Of a stretch of DNA of 64,000 nucleotides, positions 5,888 to 63,661 are shown piece by piece. This DNA comes from Sedimentisphaerales bacterium. Lineage in GTDB: Bacteria > Planctomycetota > Phycisphaerae > Sedimentisphaerales > Anaerobacaceae. A program made the translations under genes and the position numbers. The stretch's first letter is position 1; each line of letters opens with the position of its first letter. Under the pieces are notes generated by a model. It ran no database searches. It was not told where the DNA came from and saw only the letters and a list, made by a program, of their open reading frames with translations. The stretch is from the NCBI GenBank assembly GCA_050013675.1, contig JBEKEU010000006.1:84477-148476 (forward strand). The letters are read 5' to 3'.

Positions 5888-6430
5888 TTATGCGGCCTGT
5901 TTGTCCGCGCTTTCGCCTTTGTCCGTAATCGTCTTTATGCAGCCGGCTATTCTCCCGGCAGGTCCGCCAATCGCCCCGGCCAATCTCGCCGCCGGCGACT
6001 TGACCAACATAATAATCCTGCCCTGCAATTCCACCCGGCTCGGCATCTTCGAAAGCCCCGTGGCGCCCTTGCTGTCCAGTGCATCGCCTTCAAGATATGC
6101 GCCTTTTATATGAATCGCCGGCACCTTGCCAACCCAGTTGCTCAATTCCTTGGCCGTATCAACTATGCTGTCGCCGCCGTATGCGACCACGCAAGGCCCA
6201 ACGAAAAGCGACGCCGCTGATTCCATCTTCAGCTTCGTCAGTGTCCTTTTCATAAGGGCATTCTTAACGACCAATAGTTTAATGCCCTTGCTCTTGAGCG
6301 CCCCTCGCATCACGTTATTCTCAACGCCGTTTACATTCTGCGTGCTGATAACGATAAAATCGGTAACCTTTTCGCTAACGATTCTTTTTTCCAGCTCCGA
6401 ACACAGTAAATCTTTTACGAACTTGCTCAT
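5888..6430 (-). CDS. rplJ: 50S ribosomal protein L10
   Basis: 180 aa, located between rplA and rplL. L10-like sequence and conserved operon order. Confidence 0.92.
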
Positions 6431-32535: not shown

Positions 32536-33354
32536 ATGAAGACATTATTTGATTTGACGGGTAAGGTGGCGGCGGTAACGGGCGCGGGTGGGGTGCTTTG
32601 CGGCCAAATGGCAAAGGCATTGGCCTGCGCAGGGGCAAAAGTCGCGGTGATTGATTTGTCGCCGGAAGCGGCCAAGAAAGTTGCCGACGAAATTAAATCA
32701 CAGGGCGGCACTGCGTTAGCCGTCAAATGCAATGTACTGGATAAAAAGCAGATTGAAGATGCCGCTAAGGAAATTACCGCGAAGTTCGGCAAAGTCGATA
32801 TCCTGATTAACGGCGCGGGAGGCAACAAAAAAGACGCGACAACATCGGATAGTATGCCGTTTTTCGATTTGCCAGCCGAGGCGATTCGCGGGGTATTCGA
32901 TTTGAATTTCCTGGGGACACTTTTGCCCTGCCAGGTATTCGGCAAAGAGATGGCAAAAAATGGAAGCGGAGTAATATTGAACATATCGAGTATGAACGCG
33001 ATGAGACCATTGACAAAGATTTGCGGATATTCGGCAGCGAAAGCAGCCGTGAGCAACTTTACCCAGTGGTTAGCGGTGCATATCAATCAGAATTACTCGA
33101 AGGATATCCGTGTCAACGCGATTGCCCCGGGATTTTTCCTGACCGAACAGAACAGGTTCTTATTGACTGATGAAAAAACAGGGCAATTGACCCCTCGCGG
33201 CAAAACAATTATCGAGCATACCCCGATGGCCCGGTTCGGCAATCCCGATGACTTGACTGGCACAATGCTTTGGCTCGTCAGCGACGCCGCCAAATTTGTA
33301 ACCGGCGTTGTCGTGCCGGTAGATGGCGGATTTTCGGCGTTCAGCGGGGTTTAG
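32536..33354 (+). CDS. short-chain dehydrogenase/reductase (mannonate/fructuronate-reductase-like)
   Basis: 272 aa. TGAGGVLC cofactor motif, NGAG, YSAAK catalytic motif. Confidence 0.85.
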   Translation: MKTLFDLTGKVAAVTGAGGVLCGQMAKALACAGAKVAVIDLSPEAAKKVADEIKSQGGTALAVKCNVLDKKQIEDAAKEITAKFGKVDILINGAGGNKKDATTSDSMPFFDLPAEAIRGVFDLNFLGTLLPCQVFGKEMAKNGSGVILNISSMNAMRPLTKICGYSAAKAAVSNFTQWLAVHINQNYSKDIRVNAIAPGFFLTEQNRFLLTDEKTGQLTPRGKTIIEHTPMARFGNPDDLTGTMLWLVSDAAKFVTGVVVPVDGGFSAFSGV

Positions 33355-33687
33355 GGATTTGCGATTTTCGATTGTCGATTGTCGATTTGGGGATGAGGAT
33401 GCTGCCGGAGGCGGGAAAAAGACCGAATTTAGAATTTAGAGGTAAGAAGTTAGAAGACGGAAAGCTCGGCTTCGTTGAAAAACTACGCCGAGGTCTTCGC
33501 TTCCGTCTTCGTCCCTACCCGTAAGGGATGCCAAATGGCAAAGGGACTACGCCGAGACGGGGCGCTACGAAAAAATGGCTGTGCCCATTTACTTACAAGA
33601 TTTTACATGATAAAAGAGAAGAGTCTCGAATAATCGCCACGAAAGGAGTCTAAAATCGCTGAAGAACAATGTAAATATAAAGTCGGG

Positions 33688-34566
33688 ATGATTTTGAAAC
33701 ATCCCTATAAACCGGAATGGGGCCCTGGTGAAGTAGAAAATATTACCGATACTACTGTACATATTTTCTTTCGAAACGATCCTGAGAAGAAGACAAGAAT
33801 GTTCAGCCGCATTTCCCAAAACGGTCCAATAGAATGGGAAAGTTACAAAGAAGATATTCCTAAAAAACGTGATGATTTAAATAACATTCATGAAAAACCA
33901 GAATCAGAAATTCATGTTGAGGTAACAGAAAATTGCCTTAATTACTTGACCCATTTAGAAAATATTTATCCTGTGAAGACTATGGAGGAATCTTCGCCAC
34001 CATCTTCACCTGGTATTTATGCGTGGTACTTCGATGAGCCACCCCCTTACGTTCCAACAAGTGGTTGTACATTTGTCAAAGCCGGAGGGTGGCTATTTAA
34101 AACAAAGTGGTGGTTATTATATATTGGCCGTGCCGAGGATTTAAATGATCGTAACGTAAATTATCATATAAAAGGCGAACATTATGCTGAAGGGACCATA
34201 TCCTCATTGAGGTTGTCGCTTGGATGTCTACTATCAAAGAAATTGGATCTAATTCTGTACTACCCTCCAGAATCATTCGGTGCTTATGGAGACAGTAAAC
34301 TTAATGAATGGCTTAAAGAACACGTAAGAATTAGTTGGATTGAAGTAAAGAACATATATGTTATAGAGCCAGAGATAATACGAAACTGCACATTACCATT
34401 AAACTACAAAGATAATGACCATCCTTTAAAGAAACCGCTTTCAAACCTGAGAACAGCATTCAGAAATATTTCCAAGAATTTGGGACAAAAATCCAATAAA
34501 AAAGAATTTAGAAGAGCATATGAAAATTTTGCTAGAGAATGTAAGTCGTTAGGAATTAACAGGTGA
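33688..34566 (+). CDS. orphan hypothetical protein with GIY-YIG-like motifs
   Basis: 292 aa, visibly AT-rich. PGIYAWYF ... LLYIGRAEDLNDR resembles GIY/YIG+R but with unusually long spacing. N-terminal ~40 aa resembles a small beta-barrel domain. Confidence 0.5.
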   Translation: MILKHPYKPEWGPGEVENITDTTVHIFFRNDPEKKTRMFSRISQNGPIEWESYKEDIPKKRDDLNNIHEKPESEIHVEVTENCLNYLTHLENIYPVKTMEESSPPSSPGIYAWYFDEPPPYVPTSGCTFVKAGGWLFKTKWWLLYIGRAEDLNDRNVNYHIKGEHYAEGTISSLRLSLGCLLSKKLDLILYYPPESFGAYGDSKLNEWLKEHVRISWIEVKNIYVIEPEIIRNCTLPLNYKDNDHPLKKPLSNLRTAFRNISKNLGQKSNKKEFRRAYENFARECKSLGINR

Positions 34567-34843
34567 GCGATTATACCGAAAACGCCTTAATTGAATAGCC
34601 CGCAATCCTAAAAAACCGCAAATCAGTAAATCCGTATAATCTGTGGCCAGTTAAAAACAGCGCAACCAGCGTCTAAAAAACAATGACACCGAGCAAAGCG
34701 AGGATCCCGCTTCCCTATGCGGATTCTTAAATCTGTGGAAATCTGCGTCATCCGCGATTAAAATGAGTTGTTTTACAACCCGCCGTGAAACGGCGGGCTA
34801 AATATCAGTGAACTCTGTGTAATCTGTGGCTTAGGAGAATTAA

Positions 34844-35749
34844 ATGACTGATGCGGCGGCACCGTTGAAGGAGTTTAAGGTAACGAAGGAGTTTTTCGTC
34901 GGGATTGATTCGGACGGGTGCGTGTTCGATACGATGGGGATAAAGCAGCGGGAGTGTTTCTGCCCGTGGACGGTGGCGTGTTACAATTTGCAGCCGGTGG
35001 CTGAGGCGGCCAGAGAATGCAGGGTCTTTGCGGATTTATTCAGCAAGACGCGCGGGGCGAATAGGCACAAAACACTCAAGCGGATTTTGTCGGAACTGCT
35101 GCCGAATCATCCACAGGTAAAGCAGAGGGGATTTGAGGTTCCGCAGCCGAAGCATTATTTCGCGTGGGTAGATAACCCCAAGAGCATTCTAAGCAATGAC
35201 GGATTAAAAAAAGCGGCTGAGGCGGCGAAGGACCCGATGGTGAAGAAAGAATTAGAGCAGGCGCTTGACTGGAGCATAAAAGTAAACAAGGCCATAACGG
35301 ACATCGTAAAAGGAATACCGCCCTTCCCGTTTGTGCGGGAGAGTTTGGAAAAAATCGGGCCAAAAGCGGATGTTATAGTGGTATCCGCGACGCCCGGCGA
35401 GGCATTAGTGCGGGAATGGCAGGAGCATGATATCGCCAAATACGTAGCAATAATAGCGGGCCAGGAAATGGGAACAAAGGCCCAGCATCTTGAATACGCG
35501 ACGAAAGGTCGATACGATAAGGACCATGTCTTGATGGTAGGCGATGCTCCGGGCGACCTTAAGGCGGCAAAAACGAACGATGCGTTGTTTTACCCGATAG
35601 TGCCGGGCAAAGAAACAGAGTCGTGGAAGCGATTTTATGATGAGGCGTTCGACAGGTTTCTCAAGGGGCTATTCGCGGGCGGATACGAGCAGAAGCTGAT
35701 TACGGAATTCGAGAATTCCCTGCCGGGCAAACCGCCGTGGGAAAAATGA
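34844..35749 (+). CDS. HAD-superfamily hydrolase
   Basis: 301 aa. Motif I GIDSDGCVFDT, motif III/IV region VGDAPGD. Confidence 0.75.
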   Translation: MTDAAAPLKEFKVTKEFFVGIDSDGCVFDTMGIKQRECFCPWTVACYNLQPVAEAARECRVFADLFSKTRGANRHKTLKRILSELLPNHPQVKQRGFEVPQPKHYFAWVDNPKSILSNDGLKKAAEAAKDPMVKKELEQALDWSIKVNKAITDIVKGIPPFPFVRESLEKIGPKADVIVVSATPGEALVREWQEHDIAKYVAIIAGQEMGTKAQHLEYATKGRYDKDHVLMVGDAPGDLKAAKTNDALFYPIVPGKETESWKRFYDEAFDRFLKGLFAGGYEQKLITEFENSLPGKPPWEK

Positions 35750-40500: not shown

Positions 40501-41027
40501 TCCTTGGCAGCTTTAGTGCGGTGTATAGTCGAGACGGGCTTGAGATATTCAAACAGCTCGAATGACTCGCCGGATGGACCTCTAAAAAACGCTATCCTTA
40601 CGCCCCCCATCAGATTCGGGTCATCTATAATCGGAGTGAAGAAGCTGACCCCCTTGGCCTTTAGTTTCGCGAAAACGGTATTGATATCTTTGACCTCAAG
40701 GGCAATATGGTCAATAACTCCGCCTGTTCTTGGTTTGGCCTTGTTGACATCTTCCGGCTCAAGCAGCTCAATTATGCACGAACCTCGACGAACCATCGCA
40801 AAGCTATATCCGGAATCCAGATGCGCCCTGTGAACCACATCAAAACCGAGTGTATCAGTATAGAAAACGAGGGATTTGGACATATCTCTCGTATAGACGC
40901 AAATATGCGCAAGGCCGTTGATGTCTGGGGTATTGGCGTCCGCGAATGATGATTGATTAGCAATAGCCATAGTTATAACCACCATAAAAATAACAATAAA
41001 ATCGTTCACGTTTCGTCTTGTGCGCAT
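40497..41027 (-). CDS. secreted VOC/glyoxalase-family protein
   Basis: Start trimmed to ATG at 41027 (MRTRRNVNDFIVIFMVVITMAIA signal). VOC-like HICVYTRD / IDHIALEV motifs. Shares a TTAA stop overlap with uxaC. Confidence 0.7.
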   Translation of the reverse strand: MRTRRNVNDFIVIFMVVITMAIANQSSFADANTPDINGLAHICVYTRDMSKSLVFYTDTLGFDVVHRAHLDSGYSFAMVRRGSCIIELLEPEDVNKAKPRTGGVIDHIALEVKDINTVFAKLKAKGVSFFTPIIDDPNLMGGVRIAFFRGPSGESFELFEYLKPVSTIHRTKAAKD

Positions 41028-41114
41028 CCGGGCAAACCCTTTCAAAAAAATATGCGGCTCAATGACTCGAAAACATAACTTATGCAATTAAACCATAACT
41101 TATGATTTTCTGCG

Positions 41115-41146
41115 TATAAAAAAGGTCCCGCTTTTTGGGCGGGACC
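41115..41146 (-). terminator. rho-independent terminator after csp (minus strand)
   Basis: GGTCCCGC / GCGGGACC 8-bp hairpin followed on the minus strand by TTTTTT. Confidence 0.65.
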
Positions 41147-41172
41147 ACAGGTTTTTCGCACGGCAAACCGTT

Positions 41173-41376
41173 TTAGGAAGGTTTGACGTCTGTCGCTTCC
41201 GGGCCTTTCTTGCCCTGAGCGAGAGTATATTCCACCGCCTGACCTTCTTTTAGCGTCCTGAAACCCTCGGCAGCAATCTTGGAGTGATGAACAAACACAT
41301 CCTCGCTGCCGTCATCGGGAACGATAAAACCAAAACCTTTTTTCTCATTGAACCATTTTACTTTACCTGTAGCCAC
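41173..41376 (-). CDS. cspA: cold-shock protein (CspA family)
   Basis: 67 aa. GTG start 6 nt after [18 protein letters not shown] / DVFVHHS. Confidence 0.9.
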
Positions 41377-41685
41377 GTTTTTCTCCTTTTAACCCACACT
41401 ACCGATTCCTCGCTGTTTACCGAAAGCGCTCTTTCGAGGATAGTTAAAAAAGCGCCCTTTACACGGTGACAAAATATCTCAAGACGTCTTGCGATTCAAC
41501 AACTTTTTAAGGATTTTTTTGGCCTTCCAGACGGCGAACAAGGGCCATTTTATCCCCGATTCACAGGCCAAATAGCCGCTGACAACTATTGTTTTCATAT
41601 CATTTTTGGCCGGCAAAACGAGGTTTTTGCTTTACTTGAACGCAGCCGGCAGGTATATACAGTATCTCTAATGTGGTAAAAGGGC

Positions 41686-41714
41686 TTGACATAGCAATAA
41701 GTTTAAACTAAATT
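41686..41714 (+). promoter_or_regulatory. candidate promoter for rpsB-tsf
   Basis: TTGACA (41686-41691), 17-nt spacer, TAAATT (41709-41714), about 65 nt upstream of rpsB. Confidence 0.3.
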
Positions 41715-41780
41715 TTCGTGTTTGGTCTTGAGTTTTGGTACCAATATATGGTTGTTTAATTAAGGTTTTTGGAGGTTTTT

Positions 41781-42608
41781 GTGGCTAAAGAGTTGGCAAA
41801 AGAGTTAATTAGCGCAGGCGTCCATTTCGGACACAGCGCAAACCGATGGAACCCCAAAATGGGGCCTTTTATTTTTGGCAAACGCGGGCAGATACACATT
41901 ATCGACGTGCGCAAAACACTTGCGGGCCTGGTAATTGCGAAGAAACTGCTTATCGACGTAGTGGCGTCAGGCAAGGACGTCGTCTTCGTAGGAACCAAGC
42001 GGCAGGCACAAAAGGCGGTTGAGGCATCGGCGGCAAAATGCGGAATGCACTGCGTCTCGGACCGATGGCTTGGCGGGACTCTCACGAATTTCAGGACGAT
42101 ACGGTCGCGTGTTCAGCGGCTGGAAGAACTGGAAGGGATGCAGGAAGCGGGAACGCTCGAGTCACAGAGCAAAAAGCAGGCGTCTCGGCTGAAACGCGAA
42201 CTGCGGAAAATAAAAGGCAATATGGAGGGGATACGCAAAATGAGCCGGCTGCCCGGCGTCGTTATCGTAGTCGATGGCAAAAAAGAATATCTCGCCCTGC
42301 GGGAAGCCAGGAAACTCGGCATAACAACGGTGGGGATAATCGATACCGATTGCGACCCCGACACCGTGGACGTGGTGATTCCAGCCAATGATGATTCGAT
42401 AAGAGCGATAAGCTTGTTACTGGACGAGCTTGCCGACGCGGTAGCCCAAGGCAAAACAATGGATACGATTCGCAAGGACGTCGCGTCCAAACCCAAGCAC
42501 GTCAGGTCAAAAAGAACGGTAATGGCGCGTGCGGATAAGACGGAAGTCGAGCCGGCATCTGAGGAAACGAGCGAAACACCCCCAACAAACGGCGGACAGG
42601 CACAGTAA
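41781..42608 (+). CDS. rpsB: 30S ribosomal protein S2
   Basis: Start set at GTG 41781, 5 nt after GGAGG (the track TTG start overlaps the RBS). LISAGVHFGH motif. Confidence 0.95.
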   Translation: MAKELAKELISAGVHFGHSANRWNPKMGPFIFGKRGQIHIIDVRKTLAGLVIAKKLLIDVVASGKDVVFVGTKRQAQKAVEASAAKCGMHCVSDRWLGGTLTNFRTIRSRVQRLEELEGMQEAGTLESQSKKQASRLKRELRKIKGNMEGIRKMSRLPGVVIVVDGKKEYLALREARKLGITTVGIIDTDCDPDTVDVVIPANDDSIRAISLLLDELADAVAQGKTMDTIRKDVASKPKHVRSKRTVMARADKTEVEPASEETSETPPTNGGQAQ

Positions 42609-50809: not shown

Positions 50810-52321
50810 ATGGCTAAGAAACCCGCATCCAATTCAAAGAAACCCCAAACGGCTGCCAAACCCTCCTCGCTCGTCGATACTCGCGTCATTTATTGCGGCG
50901 ATAATCTCGAACAATTGAAAAAACTCCCCGATGAATGTGTTGACCTGATTTATATCGACCCGCCCTTTAACTCAAACCGCAATTATGAGGTCTTCTGGGG
51001 CGAGACAAAGGAAAAACGCGCCTTTGAAGACCGCCACGCCTCAACGCAGGCCTATATCGACTTTATGCGGCCCCGCTGCGTCGAATTGCACCGCGTCCTC
51101 AAGAAAACCGGCTCATTCTACTACCACTGCGACTGGCACGCCTCACACTACGTCAAAATTATGCTCGACCAGATTTTCAGCGAAAACCAGTTCGTTAATG
51201 AAATTGTATGGAAGAGAAGCTCAAATCGCTCTTCAATGAGCAAGATTTTTCGTCGTGCTCACGACAGTATCTTCTTTTATACAAAAAATAGTGATTACCT
51301 TTTCAATATGCAATACAAAGAACTTTCCGAAGGTTCGCTTGAAAACTACAAGCACGAAGATGAAAAAGGAAGATATAGATACGTTCCATTGTTAGTCAGC
51401 GGAAAAAGAAATGGTGAAACAGGAAAGCTGTGGAAAGGTATAGACCCAAATCATTACGGTAAAGCTGGAATGCATTGGGTAACAATTCCTGATAAGCTTG
51501 ATGAATATGATTCAAAAGGTTTAATTTATTGGCCTGAAAAAGGAGGACTCCCAACATTAAAGTATTATTTGGAAGATAATAAAGGCGTTCCGCTATCTGA
51601 TGTTTGGGACGATATAGACCTAATCAGTTCATCTTCTCGTGAATCTTTAGGCTATCCCACACAAAAACCCTTAGCACTTCTTGATAGAATAATTGAGGCT
51701 TCAAGCAATCCAAACGATATTGTCCTCGATGCCTTTTGTGGTTGTGGGACGGCTTTAGTTGCCGCTGAAAATCTCGGCAGGCAGTGGATTGGCATTGATG
51801 TTTCGCCGACTGCCTGCCGTGTTATGGCAAAGCGTCTGCGCGATGTCTGCAAAATGAAAGAGGATGAAACGCTCTGGCGGAATGGTCGGGGCTTCGTTGT
51901 TCGAGACCTGCCCTGGACAATCGAGAAGTTGCGAGAAATCCCGCCGTTTGAGTTTGAGAACTGGGCCGTTATCGCACTGGGTGGCATTCCAAACGTTGCC
52001 AAGGTTGGCGATATGGGTATCGACGGGCGTATCTATCCGGTGTCGGCCACACCGAAAAAAGACAAAGGAGAGCTTGGCTTTATGGATGTTTGGTATCCCA
52101 TTCAGGTCAAGCAGAAAGATAAAGTCGGCAGACCCGATATCGATTCCTTCGAGGCAGTTATGACGCGTGAAGACAGAACAAAGGGGTTCTTTGTTGCCTT
52201 CGACTACTCATCCGATGCTATGAGTGAGATACAGGCGTTCTTCAAAAAGTCCGGCAAAAGCATAATCGCACTTACCGTCAAAGACATCCTCGACGAGCAA
52301 ATCGCCTATAAATTAGCATAA
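50810..52321 (+). CDS. beta-class N6-adenine/N4-cytosine DNA methyltransferase fused to a C-terminal Mrr-like (PD-(D/E)xK) nuclease domain
   Basis: 503 aa. Motif IV IYIDPPFNS lies before motif I DAFCGCGTALVAA (beta order), with YPTQKP. The last ~130 aa carry GDMGIDG ... IQVKQK ... FFVAFDYS, resembling the Mrr_cat core. Confidence 0.85.
   Translation: MAKKPASNSKKPQTAAKPSSLVDTRVIYCGDNLEQLKKLPDECVDLIYIDPPFNSNRNYEVFWGETKEKRAFEDRHASTQAYIDFMRPRCVELHRVLKKTGSFYYHCDWHASHYVKIMLDQIFSENQFVNEIVWKRSSNRSSMSKIFRRAHDSIFFYTKNSDYLFNMQYKELSEGSLENYKHEDEKGRYRYVPLLVSGKRNGETGKLWKGIDPNHYGKAGMHWVTIPDKLDEYDSKGLIYWPEKGGLPTLKYYLEDNKGVPLSDVWDDIDLISSSSRESLGYPTQKPLALLDRIIEASSNPNDIVLDAFCGCGTALVAAENLGRQWIGIDVSPTACRVMAKRLRDVCKMKEDETLWRNGRGFVVRDLPWTIEKLREIPPFEFENWAVIALGGIPNVAKVGDMGIDGRIYPVSATPKKDKGELGFMDVWYPIQVKQKDKVGRPDIDSFEAVMTREDRTKGFFVAFDYSSDAMSEIQAFFKKSGKSIIALTVKDILDEQIAYKLA
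52281..52318 (+). repeat. copy 1 of the 'methyltransferase 3'-end' repeat (functional gene end, ...KDILDEQIAYKLA*)
   Basis: AAGACATCCTCGACGAGCAAATCGCCTATAAATTAGCA. Counted by hand: 31/38 identical to copy 2 and 29/33 identical to copy 3. Confidence 0.9.
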
Positions 52322-52349
52322 GAGCATAAATCTTTAAGGAGAAAGATAT

Positions 52350-52634
52350 ATGACAAGCTCAAAAAAACTTAAAGAAATATTATCTGAGATTGAACAAGCG
52401 CCAATTTCCGCTGGATGTGGTGAGCTTAGTGAAATAATGAAAAAAGCAGGAATACTTACACCTACTGCAGGGATGGATAGCCTAAAAGACAAATGTATCA
52501 GTAGCCTGCATACTGCCATACAAACCGAAAAGATGTTCGAATCGTGTGTTTATGCAAAATGGTCTTGTTTTTGTGCGGCTGTAGCTGCAATTGCATCCTG
52601 CATCAGCGTTCTTTTGTGTTTGTTTCGAGGATAA
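52350..52634 (+). CDS. orphan small tail-anchored Cys-rich protein
   Basis: 94 aa, AT-rich. AAGGAGA RBS 8 nt upstream. C-terminal hydrophobic helix CFCAAVAAIASCISVLLCLF. No known family. Confidence 0.45.
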   Translation: MTSSKKLKEILSEIEQAPISAGCGELSEIMKKAGILTPTAGMDSLKDKCISSLHTAIQTEKMFESCVYAKWSCFCAAVAAIASCISVLLCLFRG

Positions 52635-52667
52635 TAAAATTGAAAAACTTTTATCTCTATAACCACA

Positions 52668-52705
52668 AAGACATCCTCGAATCGCAAATCGCCTACAAAG
52701 TGGCG
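52668..52705 (+). repeat. copy 2 of the 'methyltransferase 3'-end' repeat (relic, still reads ...KDILESQIAYKVA*)
   Basis: AAGACATCCTCGAATCGCAAATCGCCTACAAAGTGGCG followed by TAA. Only ~23 codons are open upstream, so it is a gene-end relic. Confidence 0.85.
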
Positions 52706-52710
52706 TAAAT

Positions 52711-53898
52711 ATGCATGAACTTCCAATCGACAAGAATAAAATAGCAACGCTCTCAAAGAAAGCTAAGCATTACAATATCTTTCCTATTTTCATGCCACGC
52801 TATCTTCCTGATATGAGTCAACCTGAAACGAGTCAACATCCCGTTTCGCAATTATTAGGCGAATTAGTAAAAGATGCTCTTGAGTTTCTTTTAATAGCTA
52901 CAGACAAAGAAGTTGAAGCTTTGCTCGACAGTTTTCCTTCCGGGATAAAAATGCTAGTTGAACATACAAGCGGTCCAAAAGAAGACCGACTAAGAAGAAT
53001 CGCTCTTTATTATATTATCGTAATGGTCGAACGTATTTATTTCTCATTCAAAGACGTAATAAATGAAGATACTAAATCAAGTGTGGTTTTAGAAATATAT
53101 CCTGAACTCAAGAACTCCTTTGATAAAGATGGTTTACTGAGTATCAATGATGATTTTATTTTACATGATGGAGGCATAGAATATAAAAAGCATATGCTCC
53201 ATTATCACCAGTTGCTTCGCAGAGGATTTACCTCGAATCCAAATTTCGATTTTACTGCTCTGTTCCTGCAATATTACCAAAAAACAAAACCAAACAATAG
53301 TTTTAGGGTTGCAATAGACCACCGCCGAATAATGACAAAGGAGTTTTATTCCCAAATTATGGAACTTGATACTTGGTTTGGCCCGGCATTCAATAAGTCC
53401 AAGATAGACGACCCAAACGAAATAGGTCTAACGGTAGTGAAAAGAAACAAGAACTCGTTATTCGAATTGACAAATAGGCTTGATCGCACAGAGTTTTTCT
53501 GGTTTTACCGCGATGGAATAAAAACCTTTGAGGTAGAGGAAATATCAGATCAAGATTACTGTTTCGATAATTACAACTTTAACAGGTATATACATAGTGA
53601 GCGCGATATTGGGAACAAAATCACTCGACACTTAGATGGTGCAGTTAAAGTTTATTTGAAGGATACATACGCTGACAGGAAAAATTCGAATATTCCTAAA
53701 GAAATGAAATGCTATAAAAAAATAAAATTGTGGCGTATAGATGGAGATATCGACCTCGATTCATGGAAAGATCTGATTTCGTTTTTCTACAAGGGCAATG
53801 AAATGATAATTGAATACTTTAATCCAGAAGAATTTAAGCAAATGTTCGAACTTCGAGTCCGTGATTTTGAAGCATGGAAACGTCAGCAAAGAGAGTAA
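52711..53898 (+). CDS. orphan 395-aa protein of unknown function (candidate defence gene)
   Basis: Long uninterrupted ORF in a strongly AT-rich stretch. Starts 2 nt after the relic stop. No motif recognisable by eye. Confidence 0.6.
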   Translation: MHELPIDKNKIATLSKKAKHYNIFPIFMPRYLPDMSQPETSQHPVSQLLGELVKDALEFLLIATDKEVEALLDSFPSGIKMLVEHTSGPKEDRLRRIALYYIIVMVERIYFSFKDVINEDTKSSVVLEIYPELKNSFDKDGLLSINDDFILHDGGIEYKKHMLHYHQLLRRGFTSNPNFDFTALFLQYYQKTKPNNSFRVAIDHRRIMTKEFYSQIMELDTWFGPAFNKSKIDDPNEIGLTVVKRNKNSLFELTNRLDRTEFFWFYRDGIKTFEVEEISDQDYCFDNYNFNRYIHSERDIGNKITRHLDGAVKVYLKDTYADRKNSNIPKEMKCYKKIKLWRIDGDIDLDSWKDLISFFYKGNEMIIEYFNPEEFKQMFELRVRDFEAWKRQQRE

Positions 53899-53955: not shown

Positions 53956-54016
53956 GCGATTCAAAGATAAAACCGGCAGGATAAAAAAGCTTATCGCCAT
54001 AAGGCGATAACGGCAA
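53956..54016 (+). repeat. 61-nt inverted repeat, left copy (contains 8-bp hairpin TTATCGCC-ATAA-GGCGATAA)
   Basis: Reverse complement of 60352-60412 matches at 59/61 positions (hand alignment). Confidence 0.92.
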
Positions 54017-54092: not shown

Positions 54093-54126
54093 TATCTCTG
54101 CGTTCTCTGCGTCCTCTGCGGTGAAA

Positions 54127-54290
54127 AATCTGCCTGCCCTGCGTAGCCGCTTCGGCGAAGTAGGGTGGTTGTAAATTAGATTGACCAAAGCCGCCTAATC
54201 TGCCTGCCCTGCGACTCGTCCGGCGTAGCGCAAGCGAAGTCGGAAGCCGCTTCGGCGAAGTAGGGTGATTGTAAATTAGATTGACCAAAG
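54127..54290 (+). repeat. tandem direct repeat upstream of the ECF sigma gene
   Basis: The unit AATCTGCCTGCCCTGCG..AGCCGCTTCGGCGAAGTAGGGTG(G/A)TTGTAAATTAGATTGACCAAAG occurs at 54127-54190 and 54197-54290. The second copy carries a 31-nt insertion. Confidence 0.85.
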
Positions 54291-57972: not shown

Positions 57973-58182
57973 TTATGCGACGGTCAGCTTTTTGTGTGAA
58001 TGAGCACACTGACGCAGGTAAAGATTGACTAAGTTTTGATAGGGGATACCGGTCTCTTGTGCCATTTGCTTGAAATACTCAATCACATCGACCCCAAGAC
58101 GCAGCGTAACCTGCTTTTTTAAGGTATTCGCGTAAGGATTTCGCCGGCCTTTAAGTTTTGAAAAATCGTATTCTTTTCTCAT
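57973..58182 (-). CDS. brnA: BrnA-family antitoxin
   Basis: 69 aa. RHH-like VTLRLGVDVIEYFK. 4-nt overlap downstream of brnT. Confidence 0.8.
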   Translation of the reverse strand: MRKEYDFSKLKGRRNPYANTLKKQVTLRLGVDVIEYFKQMAQETGIPYQNLVNLYLRQCAHSHKKLTVA

Positions 58183-58472
58183 AGTTCACCTCTGGCAAAT
58201 TCGCCTTTTTCCTTCGTTGTCGCCTTCCTTGCTGAAATAATCCTGATTTGCCTTCCCTGGCTGTCAAAACAATATGAAACAACCAGCAATCGCAGTCGGC
58301 AGTCAAACCCCAGCATCAGGAACCTGTCTTCATCAGCCGAATGGTCCGGGTCAAAGAACTCTTTGGCATTCTCATCAAAGAATACCGTTGAGGCGTCTTT
58401 GAAGGAAACCCCGTGTTTTTTGAGGTTCTGCGCCGCCTTTCGGTCGTCCCAGGAAAATGTTATCTTTCCCAT
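58179..58472 (-). CDS. brnT: BrnT-family ribonuclease toxin
   Basis: 97 aa. FSWDDRKAAQNLKKHGVSFKDASTVF and IRIISARKATTKE are BrnT (DUF497) signatures. Confidence 0.85.
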   Translation of the reverse strand: MGKITFSWDDRKAAQNLKKHGVSFKDASTVFFDENAKEFFDPDHSADEDRFLMLGFDCRLRLLVVSYCFDSQGRQIRIISARKATTKEKGEFARGEL

Positions 58473-59644: not shown

Positions 59645-60040
59645 CTATGCCCACAGGTCTTGTATATCCTCATCGGACTGGAGCCAGTTTGTCGCCTTTT
59701 CAAAATCGGTGAACGCCATAACGGTAAATCTGTCGATATTCGCGCACATCTCCAAAAAAACAGCTTTGTTGAATTGTTCATCATCTCTTGCAATGACGGC
59801 GATCTTACTTCGGAATGCCTCCTTGTGTCGCCCAAGTTCAAGAATCAGCTCATGCAAGTCGGCATGATCCATGTTGCTGTGGACTTCCCGCAAGTCTAAC
59901 AGCAGCTCATGGTCTCCGATTAGATGCTCCATCTTCGCGATTTGACCGAGCACTTTTTTGCTCTCATCAAGGTCTATCTCGCCGGTGGGCTTGGCCTTTA
60001 TGAAATCCTTGGCTTGAATTATCTTATAGTTTACCCGCAT
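59645..60040 (-). CDS. hypothetical protein (possibly STAS-like)
   Basis: Start trimmed to MRVNYKIIQ (60040). The longer track ORF runs through a CACAGAG repeat element. The fold guess is weak. Confidence 0.4.
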   Translation of the reverse strand: MRVNYKIIQAKDFIKAKPTGEIDLDESKKVLGQIAKMEHLIGDHELLLDLREVHSNMDHADLHELILELGRHKEAFRSKIAVIARDDEQFNKAVFLEMCANIDRFTVMAFTDFEKATNWLQSDEDIQDLWA

Positions 60041-60351
60041 TTTCCCGCATCCTGAATAATCCTGCTTTTGTTCCACATATACTCTACTTATGGCACAGGT
60101 TTCCGACGATTTTATCCTGCCATTAAGATAATAGCAATAAGGTGGATTTTTTCGCCACAGAGAACACAGAGAGCACAGGGAATTCATTTTTTTTTAGACG
60201 CCGATTGCGCAGATTCCGCAGAGAATATGTTTAGCCCGGCAACTTTATTGCCGGGTCCCGCCTCCATAACTCAAAACTAAACACTCAACACTCAAAACTA
60301 ACATTTGACACCTCGTTTGTGAAAATCTATAGTGGGTTTGTCAGGAGGATT

Positions 60352-60412
60352 TTGCCGTTATCGCCTTATGGCGATAAGCTTTTTTGACCTGCCGGTTTTA
60401 TCTTTGAATCGC
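60352..60412 (-). repeat. 61-nt inverted repeat, right copy
   Basis: Reverse complement GCGATTCAAAGATAAAACCGGCAGGTCAAAAAAGCTTATCGCCATAAGGCGATAACGGCAA versus 53956-54016: 59/61 identical. Confidence 0.92.
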
Positions 60413-60421
60413 TCCTATGCT

Positions 60422-60910
60422 CTATTTTTGTTTCTGTTTATTGTAATATTTACACACTAAACGATCATAACGATGTATGTAGTCCCTGATATTGTGATAT
60501 TTATTTACAATGACAGCTTTAGCTTCCAGCCGTAACGTCTCATCGTCCGGAACCTGATTGATTTGTTCCAAATTTGCCGCATCTATCCTCCCTCTGAGAA
60601 AGATATTGGCTTTTTGATGCGCTTTAATTTCTACGCCAAATAAATCTATTGCCTTCATAGAAGCACTATGGATATAACCAGTCGCTTCTACTCTATCGAC
60701 CTCGATTGGAAAAGGGTTATTATTTCTAACATCAAGTATAATATTAAACTGCGACTGATACTTATCGCACCAAACTTCCACCGTGCCCTCTTGAGCGGAC
60801 ACAAAAACCTCAATGTTCTTTTTTGTTCTTCCGGGAGAATACAACCAAAAACTAATTATTTTCGGCAAATGAGAGATTAATTTTAATAAGATGTCTATGA
60901 CCCATTCCAT
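60422..60910 (-). CDS. orphan 162-aa protein (N-terminal hydrophobic helix + beta-rich domain)
   Basis: AT-rich ORF immediately downstream of the R-M pair and of repeat copy 3. NNNPFPIEVDRVEATGY loosely resembles LEA_2/WHy-type domains. No firm family. Confidence 0.5.
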   Translation of the reverse strand: MEWVIDILLKLISHLPKIISFWLYSPGRTKKNIEVFVSAQEGTVEVWCDKYQSQFNIILDVRNNNPFPIEVDRVEATGYIHSASMKAIDLFGVEIKAHQKANIFLRGRIDAANLEQINQVPDDETLRLEAKAVIVNKYHNIRDYIHRYDRLVCKYYNKQKQK

Positions 60911-60944
60911 AATTTACTTGCCACAAATAAAATACTAAATTTTG

Positions 60945-60977
60945 TGCCAGTTTGTAGGCAATTTGCTCGTCGAGGAT
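60945..60977 (-). repeat. copy 3 of the 'methyltransferase 3'-end' repeat (relic, inverted orientation)
   Basis: The minus strand reads ATCCTCGACGAGCAAATTGCCTACAAACTGGCA (ILDEQIAYKLA), 29/33 identical to 52286-52318. It overlaps the stop of the endonuclease gene. Confidence 0.85.
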
Positions 60978-61546
60978 TACGAATCGACACCGATAATGAG
61001 AACGGGGATGTCGATGTTTGAAACGCCGCGATGTTCCAAATCCCAAACGAATTGCTCAAAGTATGAAACACCGGTTGACATCTGATCCGCAAACCGCTTC
61101 ACGGGAACTATTTCCACTCCGGCGTCAATGAATCCAAGGTTTTTGAAGATTGTCATCTTGGCACAGACGTTATAGACCATGAAGGCATATTTTCCGAACT
61201 GCACTTCCACACCAAGATTTTCTTTCAAAAAATCCATTTCCCGGAATGCGCCTTTATTGAGCGTTTCCGGCTTATAGCCGGGCCGGTAATACTGTGTGGG
61301 ATACTGGCACGGAACTTTTTGACAGCTCCAGCCCGATGCAAAAAACTTCTCTTTGAATTTTTTATTGAGAGCAACAGGACTAAAAAGACGCCGACCTCGC
61401 ATCGTCTTTTCCTTACTGATTTTCTTCATACAAGCGGAACTGTCAACCTGCCGGATTACTTCATAAACCTCTTTGACTAATTTTGAGTGGTGTTTAGCGA
61501 GATACGCGTTACCCTTATTGAATGAATATTCTCCGGCAATAATCAC
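60977..61546 (-). CDS. putative type II restriction endonuclease, BglII/BstYI-like
   Basis: 189 aa. 4-nt overlap with the upstream methyltransferase. MDFLKENLGVEVQFGK gives D-X8-E-X-Q, the spacing of the BglII catalytic residues (D84, E93, Q95). Confidence 0.6.
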   Translation of the reverse strand: MIIAGEYSFNKGNAYLAKHHSKLVKEVYEVIRQVDSSACMKKISKEKTMRGRRLFSPVALNKKFKEKFFASGWSCQKVPCQYPTQYYRPGYKPETLNKGAFREMDFLKENLGVEVQFGKYAFMVYNVCAKMTIFKNLGFIDAGVEIVPVKRFADQMSTGVSYFEQFVWDLEHRGVSNIDIPVLIIGVDS

Positions 61547-62529
61547 AGAAGGGTTTCCTCCTTATCCCAAATTGCAGGACGCCGGCTTACCTTTTCTCGC
61601 CCTGTTGGCGTAAAAACCGGCTTGCCCAAGGGACGTGTCTTTAACGTTCCTTCAGCCAGCATCTGGAGACGTTTTCGGCATATATCCAGATATTTTTCTT
61701 CGCGGTCGCACCCGACAGCACGCCGATTATGTTTCGCCGCCGCGATGAGGGTTGATCCGACGCCGGCATACGGGTCGTAAATCCAGTCGTCCTCTTTGGT
61801 CAAAGCCAGAACACAACGCTCAACCAATTCCACGGGAAACTGGCAGGGATGGATAGTTTTTTCCGGATGATTCGCTTTGACGTTCGGGATGTCCCATATC
61901 AGACGCTCCCAGTCTTCAGCAACAATCTTCCAAACATCGGAAGGATTCTTGCCTAAAGGATTACCCGAAGGAAATCCTTTTTTGTCACCCTTGAAATGAC
62001 ATTTCCCAGGATACTTGGCGGGCACCCTTACCGGATCTAAGTTAAAAATATAATTATCCGACTTGGTAAACCAAAGGATAGTTTCATACCGACCGGAAAA
62101 ACGCAAACTGCAATGTAATCCATGCTCGAAATGCCAGATAATTCGATTGCGAAGTTGCAATCCCTTCGACTTGAACAAATCATAGAAATAAATATCAAGC
62201 GGAAATACTTCGCCGTTTTCAACGTAGTTGCCCACCTGCCAGCAAATGCTCCCGTCATGCTTTAGGCAACGCGCAAGTTCGCCTATTAATGGTTCCTGTT
62301 GAGCGAGGTATTCCTTCAGCGACGATTTGTGCTCATATTCCTTCCCGATGTTATAGGGAGGCGAGGTAATGATTAGCGAAAAGAAATCTTTTGGAAGAGA
62401 ACTCGCAAAAGCCAAAGCATCATCACAGGCCATCACGAGATTTGCCTCAGGCGTGAATTTATCAGATATTTCAAAGCTGCCGCCAAATAGCGACCTCATC
62501 CGTGAACTGGTTCTATATTCCCTTATCAT
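61543..62529 (-). CDS. beta-class DNA methyltransferase (N4-cytosine/N6-adenine, SPPY type)
   Basis: 328 aa. IITSPPYNIG (motif IV) precedes DPYAGVGSTLIAA (motif I). Confidence 0.88.
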   Translation of the reverse strand: MIREYRTSSRMRSLFGGSFEISDKFTPEANLVMACDDALAFASSLPKDFFSLIITSPPYNIGKEYEHKSSLKEYLAQQEPLIGELARCLKHDGSICWQVGNYVENGEVFPLDIYFYDLFKSKGLQLRNRIIWHFEHGLHCSLRFSGRYETILWFTKSDNYIFNLDPVRVPAKYPGKCHFKGDKKGFPSGNPLGKNPSDVWKIVAEDWERLIWDIPNVKANHPEKTIHPCQFPVELVERCVLALTKEDDWIYDPYAGVGSTLIAAAKHNRRAVGCDREEKYLDICRKRLQMLAEGTLKTRPLGKPVFTPTGREKVSRRPAIWDKEETLL

Positions 62530-63038
62530 AACTGTTAGTTTAAATCATGCTCGATAATTTGCAAGAGAACATTCGTAACTGCAAATCATAGGAAAAGCTT
62601 TTCTAACGAGGCCTGTCCCAGTTTTTAATGTAAAAACAAGGATTATTGCGTTTTTGAGGCCATTTTGGGCCTATTTTTTGCATGTTTTTCAGGCCGACCT
62701 TTCGCTGTAACCTTTTGCGGAATAAGGACATAAAACAGGACTAAAAAAGTCGTATAAAACAACTGTATCAAACATTTGTATGATACATTTGTTCACCAAA
62801 AGCGCGCAAGTGTTTTTTGGCAAATCCGGGAAATTCTGAAAATTTTTTTACTCCTTATACCATAACAAGTTAAGTGCATTTCGAGGCATCCCCAAAATCG
62901 GATTTTTCGTCAAAAGCGCGCAAGTTCGCGCCAATTATAGAGGGACGCGCGAAGCGGGTCGCTTCGCGAGAAAGTAGAAAGTTGAGCAGGAGAACAGGAG
63001 AAAGGGAATTTAAGATTTGAGATTTGAAAGTAACCCAC

Positions 63039-63085: not shown

Positions 63086-63661
63086 ATGTCAAGTATCACA
63101 ATCAAAGTTCCAAACTGGTTAGACCGTATTTGCGCGTGGCCGGTGGTGGCTTATCGGCAATTGAAGTTCGGCTACCCATTTCGCAAAATTCCTCTCGGCG
63201 AAGGCAGATTCACCCTTGTTGACCCCGCGCTCTTTTATCGGCTCAATATCTTCCAGTGGTACGCAGATGGAAAGAGCGAGAAAATCTATGCCGTCAGGAA
63301 TATAATATCGGCTAATGAAAATTCAAGAACTATGCGATTACACAGGGAAATTATGAATGTTCCACCAGGCATTTTGGTGGACCATAGAAACGGCGACACA
63401 TTAGACAATAGAAGAACCAATCTGCGTTTGGCAACTTGTTCACAGAATTCCTGTAACAGACAAAAGACAAAATCAAAAACCTCTTCTCGATTTATCGGCG
63501 TTTCTTTTGACAAACACAAGGTCGTGTGGACTGCCTATATCAGTTTTCACAGGAAAAGAATATGGTTAGGGTGTTTCAAAACCGAAATCGCAGCCGCGAA
63601 GGCGCATGATGAGGCGGCGAAAAAGTATCACGATGAGTTCGCCCGGCTCAACTTTGTTTAG
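63086..63661 (+). CDS. HNH endonuclease with AP2/ERF-type DNA-binding domain (homing-endonuclease-like)
   Basis: 191 aa. VDHRNGDTLDNRRTNLRLATCSQNSCN (HNH) followed by SRFIGVSFDKHKVVWTAYISFHRKRIWLGCFKTEIAAAKAHDEAAKKYHDEFARLNF (AP2). GGGAGG RBS. Confidence 0.85.
   Translation: MSSITIKVPNWLDRICAWPVVAYRQLKFGYPFRKIPLGEGRFTLVDPALFYRLNIFQWYADGKSEKIYAVRNIISANENSRTMRLHREIMNVPPGILVDHRNGDTLDNRRTNLRLATCSQNSCNRQKTKSKTSSRFIGVSFDKHKVVWTAYISFHRKRIWLGCFKTEIAAAKAHDEAAKKYHDEFARLNFV

Follow-up and report, generated by a model that had tools for sequence, protein, structure and literature searches.

Two genes labelled as hypothetical proteins lie directly behind a DNA methyltransferase–nuclease fusion gene in a metagenome-assembled genome (MAG) of Sedimentisphaerales (Planctomycetota; contig JBEKEU010000006.1 of assembly GCA_050013675.1), and their arrangement raises the question of whether they act together. 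They encode a small, predicted tail-anchored protein of 94 amino acids (aa) and a soluble protein of 395 aa. An initial annotation of the sequence had read them as a possible sensor and membrane effector of the abortive-infection type, while remarking that a gene-end relic between them could mean that they had arrived as independent cassettes. We examined the locus within a stretch of 64,000 nucleotides (nt; positions 84,477 to 148,476 of the contig, hereafter the window and numbered from 1). The 94-aa and 395-aa genes are not a conserved pair, and both of their families keep company with restriction-type fusion enzymes. In the explanation that we favour, to which we give roughly an even chance of being correct as a whole, the region from 50.8 to 53.9 kb is a small, horizontally acquired defence islet anchored by the methylase–nuclease gene, the two downstream genes are independent cargo of this islet, and the 395-aa family is a candidate restriction-linked or stand-alone defence enzyme.

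Layout of the locus

Three consecutive genes on the + strand make up the islet:

50810..52321, + strand: beta-class DNA methyltransferase with a C-terminal Mrr-like nuclease domain, 503 aa, the anchor of the islet (Pfam, PADLOC, PDB)
52350..52634, + strand: gene for the predicted 94-aa tail-anchored small membrane protein, with a ribosome-binding site (RBS) AAGGAG at 52335-52340, 9 nt upstream of its ATG
52711..53898, + strand: gene for the 395-aa soluble protein, a member of a large uncharacterised family (homologues, AlphaFold2 model, conservation, substitution rates)

The spacers are exactly 28 nt (methylase to 94-aa gene) and 76 nt (94-aa to 395-aa gene), and the shared strand, the spacing and the AT-richness agree with the initial description. 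The G+C content (GC) is 0.39 in the 94-aa gene and 0.355 in the 395-aa gene, against 0.50 for the whole window, and is back to about 0.51 beyond 54 kb. In the NCBI record the two open reading frames (ORFs) are ABSA64_10425 and ABSA64_10430, respectively.

Low GC and the bare label 'hypothetical protein' are what might be expected of spurious ORFs, that is, chance frames in AT-rich DNA. We consider the likelihood of this to be practically nil, as full-length homologues number in the hundreds, the start codon is conserved and the AlphaFold2 model of the 395-aa protein is confident. Ratios of non-synonymous to synonymous substitution rates (dN/dS; Nei–Gojobori, against homologous loci) are 0.12-0.17 for the 94-aa gene and 0.13-0.21 for the 395-aa gene; because the values for both lie within 0.12-0.21, these ORFs are under purifying selection and are genuine coding genes. 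The ORFs and their coordinates are thus as first described, but the genes are not the orphans that they had been taken for, with 29 homologue clusters for the shorter protein and at least 905 for the longer.

Order of events at the islet

The history of the locus is recorded in a direct repeat on either side of the 94-aa gene. Here and below, labels such as L006 denote loci fetched for relatives, and P-labels denote representative protein clusters.

52279..52321, + strand: direct-repeat copy 1, the functional methylase 3' end (KDILDEQIAYKLA*), found by repeat search (43 nt, spacing 387 nt)
52635..52665, + strand: 31-nt spacer taaaattgaaaaacttttatctctataacca, which moves with the 94-aa cassette; L006, L007 and L008 have the same sequence ahead of their relics
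52666..52708, + strand: direct-repeat copy 2, the relic, a displaced 3' end of an earlier methylase allele, with its TAA 2 nt ahead of the 395-aa ATG

Copy 2 is the gene-end relic noted in the initial annotation and is 84% identical over 43 nt to the methylase end at 52279-52321. Its junction with the 395-aa gene, taaatATGcatgaacttcc, matches the intact methylase–395 junction tagatATGcatgaacttcc of L045, and the agreement holds in a longer view of the junction ('...ctggcatagatATGcatgaacttcc' in L045 and '...gtggcgtaaatATGcatgaacttcc' in the window). L045 is one of five loci (with L040, L047, L048 and L049) that encode the closest 395-aa homologues, at 79-89% identity; in these loci a 501-502-aa methylase–Mrr gene stops 2 nt before the 395-aa start and no 94-aa gene lies between. 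Because the relic junction of the window matches the intact stop–2 nt–start junction of these closest relatives, the methylase–395 arrangement came first, as a translationally coupled operon. The 94-aa cassette entered later, between the methylase and the 395-aa gene, and the initial suspicion of independent cassettes is borne out.

Other loci show the same pieces in different combinations. Cassette, spacer and relic recur alike in L006-L008 (repeat 98% identical, spacing 387 nt), where an unrelated 201-aa gene follows in place of the 395-aa gene. In L122-L124 methylase and 94-aa gene stand together without a relic, and a PIN_2 gene follows after 20 nt. The simplest history would be a recombination between a methylase–94 locus and a methylase–395 locus, in which one end was anchored through methylase homology and an illegitimate junction formed at the other, 43 nt ahead of the old stop. 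The 94-aa cassette would in this way have brought a fresh methylase 3' end and left the old end as the 43-nt relic. In the window the ATG of the 395-aa gene has only a weak GTGG-type site, located within the relic; of the two plausible RBSs proposed initially, that of the 94-aa gene stands, while that of the 395-aa gene is reduced to this weak site.

The 94-aa family

The 94-aa protein belongs to a family of 29 homologue clusters, each of 94-100 aa and 50-98% identical. It is predicted to consist of a soluble helical head of about 70 aa and a single C-terminal transmembrane segment. This 22-residue hydrophobic tail (aa 71-92) has a transmembrane-like Kyte–Doolittle 19-residue mean of 2.16 and is conserved in the family, which also shares the invariant motif ..P.AGMDSLKDKC...QTE.M...C.YAKWSC..A..A. 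The initial annotation was right about a hydrophobic C-terminal helix with five Cys: the protein has seven Cys, five of them within the final 29 residues. Across the family, C66 and C73 are the only conserved Cys, with C49 nearly so, and the Cys-rich character appears to be mostly a local trait of the protein in the window. Pfam, NCBIfam, PADLOC and PHROGs gave no matches for the 94-aa protein, with 0 PADLOC families at E≤1.

An 18-nt imperfect inverted repeat (78% complementary) flanks the RBS and start of the 94-aa gene (52321-52338 / 52368-52385) and may occlude the RBS; it is conserved in L006 (5972-5989 / 6019-6036).

The 94-aa gene lies directly 3' of a nuclease-type defence gene in 7/7 independent contexts. 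These upstream partners come from four unrelated gene families: methylase–Mrr genes in the window, L006 and L122-124, with a pseudogenised methylase–Mrr in L130; an MmeI-type enzyme in L127; Shedu SduA in L125/126 (PADLOC E=1e-22); and a 247-aa gene in L009-011, which together with its 94-aa homologue has been inserted between ilvN and ilvC. Downstream genes are variable and comprise PIN_2, an AbiTii-like gene, unknowns of 201 and 189 aa, or the 395-aa gene. The 247-aa protein (L009-L011, 5204-5947) contains an R-x4-H string, VRCNLFHG, that recalls HEPN nucleases, and its Pfam and PADLOC scans were empty. Among the non-methylase contexts, an imperfect repeat of about 25 nt on both sides of the cassette was seen by eye in L125 and was unreported by the repeat search, and we make no general claim of an insertion signature around the cassette.

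These distributions bear on the proposal that the 395-aa protein is a cytosolic sensor and the 94-aa protein its membrane effector in a two-gene abortive-infection system. The adjacency of the genes on one strand, the predicted C-terminal transmembrane helix of the 94-aa protein and the defence-like setting all speak for this arrangement. A small membrane neighbour is perhaps not pure chance either, for in L040, the closest relative, a different tail-anchored protein overlaps the stop of the 395-aa homologue by 4 nt (2491-2811; 106 aa as called, 115 aa in its own ORF call; unrelated to the 94-aa protein of the window). However, a tblastn search of all fetched loci found the 94-aa gene in 0/115 other 395-family loci, and no other 94-aa locus has a 395-family gene, so that the two co-occur in the window only. 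Moreover, the relic marks the 94-aa gene as an insertion into an existing methylase–395 operon, and in L006 the same cassette and relic precede the unrelated 201-aa gene. We consequently judge a sensor–effector pair to be very improbable, and this part of the initial annotation is not supported. Under the favoured explanation the 94-aa protein would instead be an unrelated, lineage-restricted membrane cassette, for which membrane effector or modulator are candidate roles.

At many 395-family loci, ORFs of 145-160 aa suggested a conserved small downstream partner, but these ORFs are mutually unrelated and the candidate was rejected.

Extent and structure of the 395-aa family

A word-indexed search with the 395-aa protein gave 235 matches, nearly all of 380-400 aa and 46-89% identical, with named sources that include Nostoc, Microcystis, Poribacteria, Acidobacteria and Arcobacteraceae. 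An exhaustive search extended the family to at least 905 representative clusters (50% identity) at E≤1e-3, with 626 at E≤1e-10. Scans of genomes and metagenomes added 28 and 74 loci, respectively, from Cyanobacteria, Desulfobacteraceae, Chromatiales, Nitrospirota, Acidobacteriota, Campylobacterales, Chloroflexota, Verrucomicrobiota and Ignavibacteriales; the phyletic spread is patchy and covers many phyla. Copies appear to be disrupted in L030, L034, L036 and L038. One match, at 28% identity, lies in an unannotated 6.8-kb 'Bacteriophage sp.' record.

The protein is soluble by its Kyte–Doolittle 19-residue peak of 1.21, and AlphaFold2 models it with confidence from a 37-sequence alignment (predicted local distance difference test, pLDDT, 91.1; predicted template-modelling score, pTM, 0.87). 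A helical N-terminal domain (aa 8-136) is followed by a beta-rich core of long antiparallel strands (aa 143-347) and by C-terminal helices; the conserved core of the family spans aa ~124-375. Structure prediction and Foldseek had been looked to in the initial annotation for an identity, and they yielded this confident model with nothing at E≤1e-3 in PDB and BFVD (best template-modelling scores, TM-scores, ~0.15). PDB sequence searches, with the single sequence and with profiles including those of 37 and 80 members, returned chance matches to designed proteins only. The first reading had found no assignable motif, and a regular-expression scan agrees: there is no Walker A, HKD or ExExK motif, and PD-(D/E)xK-like strings occur only at non-conserved positions. 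Across Pfam, NCBIfam, PADLOC, Foldseek and regular expressions there was no nuclease fold or motif of the PD-(D/E)xK, HNH, GIY-YIG or phospholipase D (PLD) kinds, and Pfam detected no TIR domain in the 395-aa protein of the window. A match to CBAH (E=0.018) was below cut-off and not common to 80 relatives, and was discarded.

Despite this lack of recognisable motifs, the family is strongly conserved at particular polar positions. Among 80 diverse members D203, H307 and K339 are invariant; E276, E277, H295 and D309 are kept in 79/80 and Y315, R342, D344 and N363 in 78/80, and H166, E218, R292 and R323 in ≥90%. Because several of these residues alternate along single strands, as in H307-x-D309-x-A311-x-K/R313-x-Y315, they would lie on one face of the sheet. 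This His/Asp/Glu/Lys/Arg face is probably an active or ligand-binding site that binds metal or phosphate, and we infer that the protein is most likely a hydrolase whose substrate is a nucleic acid or a nucleotide. Readings of the conserved residues as a triphosphate-tunnel (CYTH) enzyme, a 2-oxoglutarate oxygenase (HxD...H) or a PLD enzyme were rejected as unsupported by motif order and Foldseek.

Two variants of the architecture were found. Members of a subfamily of about 690 aa (P0225, P0228, P0237 and others) carry an extra N-terminal beta domain and a C-terminal extension of about 300 aa that ends in CxxC...CxC. The AlphaFold2 model of a 695-aa long form (pLDDT 85) had no Foldseek match in PDB at E≤1e-3, the best being p32 at E=0.06. 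Two further clusters, P0185 and P0317 (65% mutual identity), are fusions with an N-terminal TIR_2 domain. By eye, the long-form N-terminal pattern VP..HD....iG resembles HK97-type prohead proteases, and it has no Pfam match.

Restriction enzymes as neighbours

The upstream gene of the window is a methyltransferase–nuclease fusion, as first proposed. Pfam recognised N6_N4_Mtase (E=3e-52) and Mrr_cat (E=3.5e-5; 24.3 bits against a cut-off of 21) in the 503-aa protein, and PADLOC recognised MTase_II (E=5.5e-78) as well as MTase_III. Its sequence relatives in PDB are CcrM, RsrI, MboIIA, the EcoP15I Mod subunit and the Mod protein of 6k0w. Motif IV, (D/S)PP(F/Y), precedes motif I, FxGxG, as in the beta class, and a D...(Q/E)xK nuclease core accompanies the above-threshold Pfam matches. 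An alignment of methylase alleles holds DPPF (aa 50-53), FCGCGT (309-314) and D405...Q432-V-K434 invariant. A further feature is needed to describe its variation:

51182..51619, + strand: central target-recognition region of the methylase (aa ~125-270), GC 0.37 against 0.48-0.50 in its flanks

Compared with the alleles of L006, L045, L048 and L122, this region is only 27-38% identical, whereas its flanks are 83-94% identical. The methylase is thus a mosaic in which the recognition region has been swapped between alleles, and this pattern suggests that recombination switches the specificity of this Type III-Mod-like fusion enzyme. The locus is a clean, datable case of the rebuilding of a defence islet, with a swapped recognition domain, a cassette that carries a duplicated gene end, and a downstream cargo replaced in sister genomes.

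No neighbour is universal to 395-family genes. The commonest neighbour class is that of DNA methylase–nuclease fusions, and it comprises two unrelated architectures. An MmeI/Eco57I-like Type IIG enzyme (gamma-class) directly adjoins the 395-family gene in L012, L032, L037, L051 and L074, while an N6_N4 methylase with Mrr_cat or NA-iREase1 adjoins it both in the close clade and in a 37%-identical clade (L099-L101), where the methylase is about 40% identical to that of the window. This is consistent with methylase and 395-aa gene having been inherited together over a long time. Among 119 de-duplicated immediate neighbours the top Pfam families were N6_N4_Mtase (5) and Eco57I (4), with concordant PADLOC results, and a methylase-type gene is adjacent in 8/38 distinct loci with both flanks of at least 1 kb (~21%). 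The long contigs of L001-L005 have no methylase within 6 kb of the 395-family gene. Other neighbours of the conflict type are AbiGi, HNH, SNase, PIN and PIN-TPR, and in general terms the defence context first noted for the locus holds for the neighbours of both families. Literature searches found nothing relevant on a methylase–Mrr partner or on a Type IIG-associated family.

Such company invites a second explanation, in which the 395-aa protein is the cognate restriction or effector subunit of the methylase in a two-gene restriction–modification (R-M) system, with an Mrr-like domain that merely binds DNA. The stop–2 nt–start junction is conserved in at least four relatives, the pairing recurs at 37% identity, and the C-terminal domain of the L101 and L099 methylases scores higher for NA-iREase1 (an 'inactive' restriction endonuclease domain) than for Mrr_cat; restriction enzymes are, besides, notoriously hard to annotate. 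Several observations run counter to this explanation. About 80% of distinct loci lack an adjacent methylase, and in such a setting a genuine restriction nuclease would kill its host. The 395-aa core is 86-100% identical between loci whose methylase recognition regions share only the low identity given above, and because the core is constant while the recognition region is swapped, the 395-aa protein cannot carry a matching sequence specificity. The methylase retains its D...QxK nuclease residues and occurs with other downstream genes, and the Type IIG neighbours already include a nuclease of their own. Finally, no nuclease fold or motif was found in the 395-aa protein, whereas a BstYI-like endonuclease in the same window was recognised at E=8e-33. 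Since most loci lack a methylase, co-variation is absent, the partners carry nucleases and there is no nuclease fold, a classical cognate restriction endonuclease is an unlikely identity for the 395-aa protein, and we put the probability of the two-gene R-M explanation as a whole correspondingly low.

Defence function or passenger genes

A third explanation is that both genes are passengers of non-defence function, for example in niche-specific metabolism or the envelope, which hitch-hike on AT-rich mobile DNA. Its basis is in part the same evidence that weighs against a defence role for the 395-aa family. The 395-aa protein matches nothing in Pfam, NCBIfam, PADLOC or PHROGs, with 0 PADLOC families at E≤1, so that known-defence models match neither protein. 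Most 395-family loci have ordinary housekeeping neighbours (FtsH, Mfd, amidohydrolase, MsrA). Neither family has relatives in IMG/VR viral contigs, and distant 395-aa homologues on Pseudomonas and Leptospira plasmids lie amid insertion sequence elements and hypothetical genes. Methylase matches are more frequent among adjacent genes (11/134) than among distal ones (4/332; odds ratio 7.3, Fisher p=3.6e-4), which speaks for a restriction linkage of the 395-aa family, but the comparison is biased towards this result, as the BLAST queries were drawn from adjacent genes. In the same organisms the TIR type of P0185 and P0317 occurs in fusions with dozens of other domains, which makes it weak evidence of function, and residue conservation is the sole ground for a catalytic reading. 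In the window itself, the 395-aa gene may be weakly expressed, given its lost translational coupling and poor RBS.

Several observations stand against the passenger explanation: methylase–nuclease genes of two unrelated architectures outnumber any other class of neighbour, the 94-aa gene lies beside nuclease- or Abi-type genes in all seven of its independent contexts, TIR fusions occur, and the 395-aa family has a patchy cross-phylum distribution at 46-89% identity. On balance we consider that passenger status for both genes is rather improbable, and we infer an enzyme with a conflict-related role for the 395-aa family.

Under the favoured explanation of independent defence cargo, the 395-aa protein would be a self-sufficient anti-invader effector; its gene stands alone in about 80% of loci. 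In the remaining ~20% it would be co-transcribed with a single-chain restriction enzyme and could serve as a second line, as PrrC is coupled to EcoprrI. A bolder version, which we offer tentatively and think more doubtful than probable, is that the family, from Cyanobacteria to Planctomycetota, is an unrecognised anti-invader enzyme of new fold that acts alone or partners methylase–nuclease enzymes. It would then represent a new class of restriction-coupled second-line effectors, and the methylase–Mrr gene with the 395-aa gene would form a new two-component R-M-like system. If the family is a defence enzyme at all, a widespread and structurally new protein would join the prokaryotic immune repertoire. 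The family is in any case a convenient target for study, being large, well conserved, soluble and confidently modelled.

Other features of the window

The right edge of the AT-rich islet is marked by a palindrome:

53991..54010, no strand assigned: perfect palindrome TTATCGCCttatGGCGATAA, 93 nt past the 395-aa stop, with a terminator-like site scored on the - strand

A scan for promoters and terminators gave counts no higher than the shuffled expectation, and Rfam and tRNA scans found no integration site or RNA element within 40 kb of the islet. Between the islet and a gene for an extracytoplasmic function (ECF) sigma factor lie a tandem duplication of about 100 nt and short CTGCG-rich repeats (54095-54290); the 46-nt cores of the duplication (54145-54190 / 54245-54290) are 98% identical, confined to this single site in the window and without an Rfam match.

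A second, classical Type II R-M system is encoded on the - strand at 60977-62529. Its 189-aa BstYI-like endonuclease is related to PDB 1sdo (at the E-value cited above) and to BglII (E=4e-4), and the gene overlaps by 4 nt that of a 328-aa RsrI-like beta-class methyltransferase (E=8.5e-27). Just downstream and in the same orientation is a 162-aa ORF (60422-60910). Overlapping ORFs of 69 and 97 aa on the - strand (57973-58472) are, by eye, a candidate BrnA/BrnT-type toxin–antitoxin pair. At the window edge, a 191-aa ORF on the + strand (63086-63661) combines an HNH-like string, LVDHRNGDTLDNRRTNL, with an AP2-like C-terminus and looks by eye to be of the homing-endonuclease type. Dips in GC to 0.39-0.45 (against ~0.51) at 33000-35000, 41000-42000 and 60000-63000 suggest other horizontally acquired segments.

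Comparison with known systems

The 94-aa protein resembles the small tail-anchored proteins of defence and toxin modules (holin-like, type I toxin-like) in having a head and a C-terminal transmembrane segment and in its location in defence islets. It differs in being longer than type I toxins, in its lack of homology to described families and in the variety of its upstream partners. For the long form of the 395-aa family, the best Foldseek matches were p32/MAM33 (E=0.06, probability 0.5-0.66) and the Whirly-like MRP1/2 (E=0.42), which share a long antiparallel sheet with flanking helices; these matches are non-significant, with TM-scores ≤0.26 and E far above threshold, and provide a lead only and no fold assignment.

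The anchor gene combines traits of two known R-M types, namely the beta-class motif order and central variable recognition region of a Type III Mod and the fused nuclease of Type IIG enzymes. The islet departs from both in lacking a Res helicase subunit; the downstream partner, the 395-aa protein, is free of helicase and nuclease motifs, and sister loci do without it. With single-gene defence proteins such as Shedu SduA, Abi and TIR proteins, the 395-aa family has in common that it is solitary, patchy, AT-rich, horizontally moved and sometimes disrupted, that its neighbours include R-M, AbiGi, HNH, SNase and PIN genes, and that it has rare TIR fusions; unlike these proteins, it lacks PADLOC, Pfam or PHROG homology and a structural neighbour.

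PrrC/EcoprrI, an anticodon nuclease in a Type Ic R-M locus, offers a further parallel. As described in two papers (PMC3458546; PMC1484252), PrrC is always R-M-linked and its relative RloC rarely. The 395-aa protein is not homologous to PrrC or RloC, does not resemble PrrC in sequence or fold and lacks an ABC-ATPase domain and a Walker A motif; its partner is a single-chain methylase–Mrr or Type IIG enzyme and not a Type I complex. Any likeness would lie in the arrangement, in which some genomes carry a putative accessory effector gene next to a restriction enzyme and in the same orientation, with solitary relatives elsewhere, and PrrC thus serves as a logical model for a second line of defence after restriction. 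If the 395-aa family is a defence enzyme, it would be a second example, after PrrC/EcoprrI, of a restriction-coupled effector, here with single-chain methylase–nuclease fusions.

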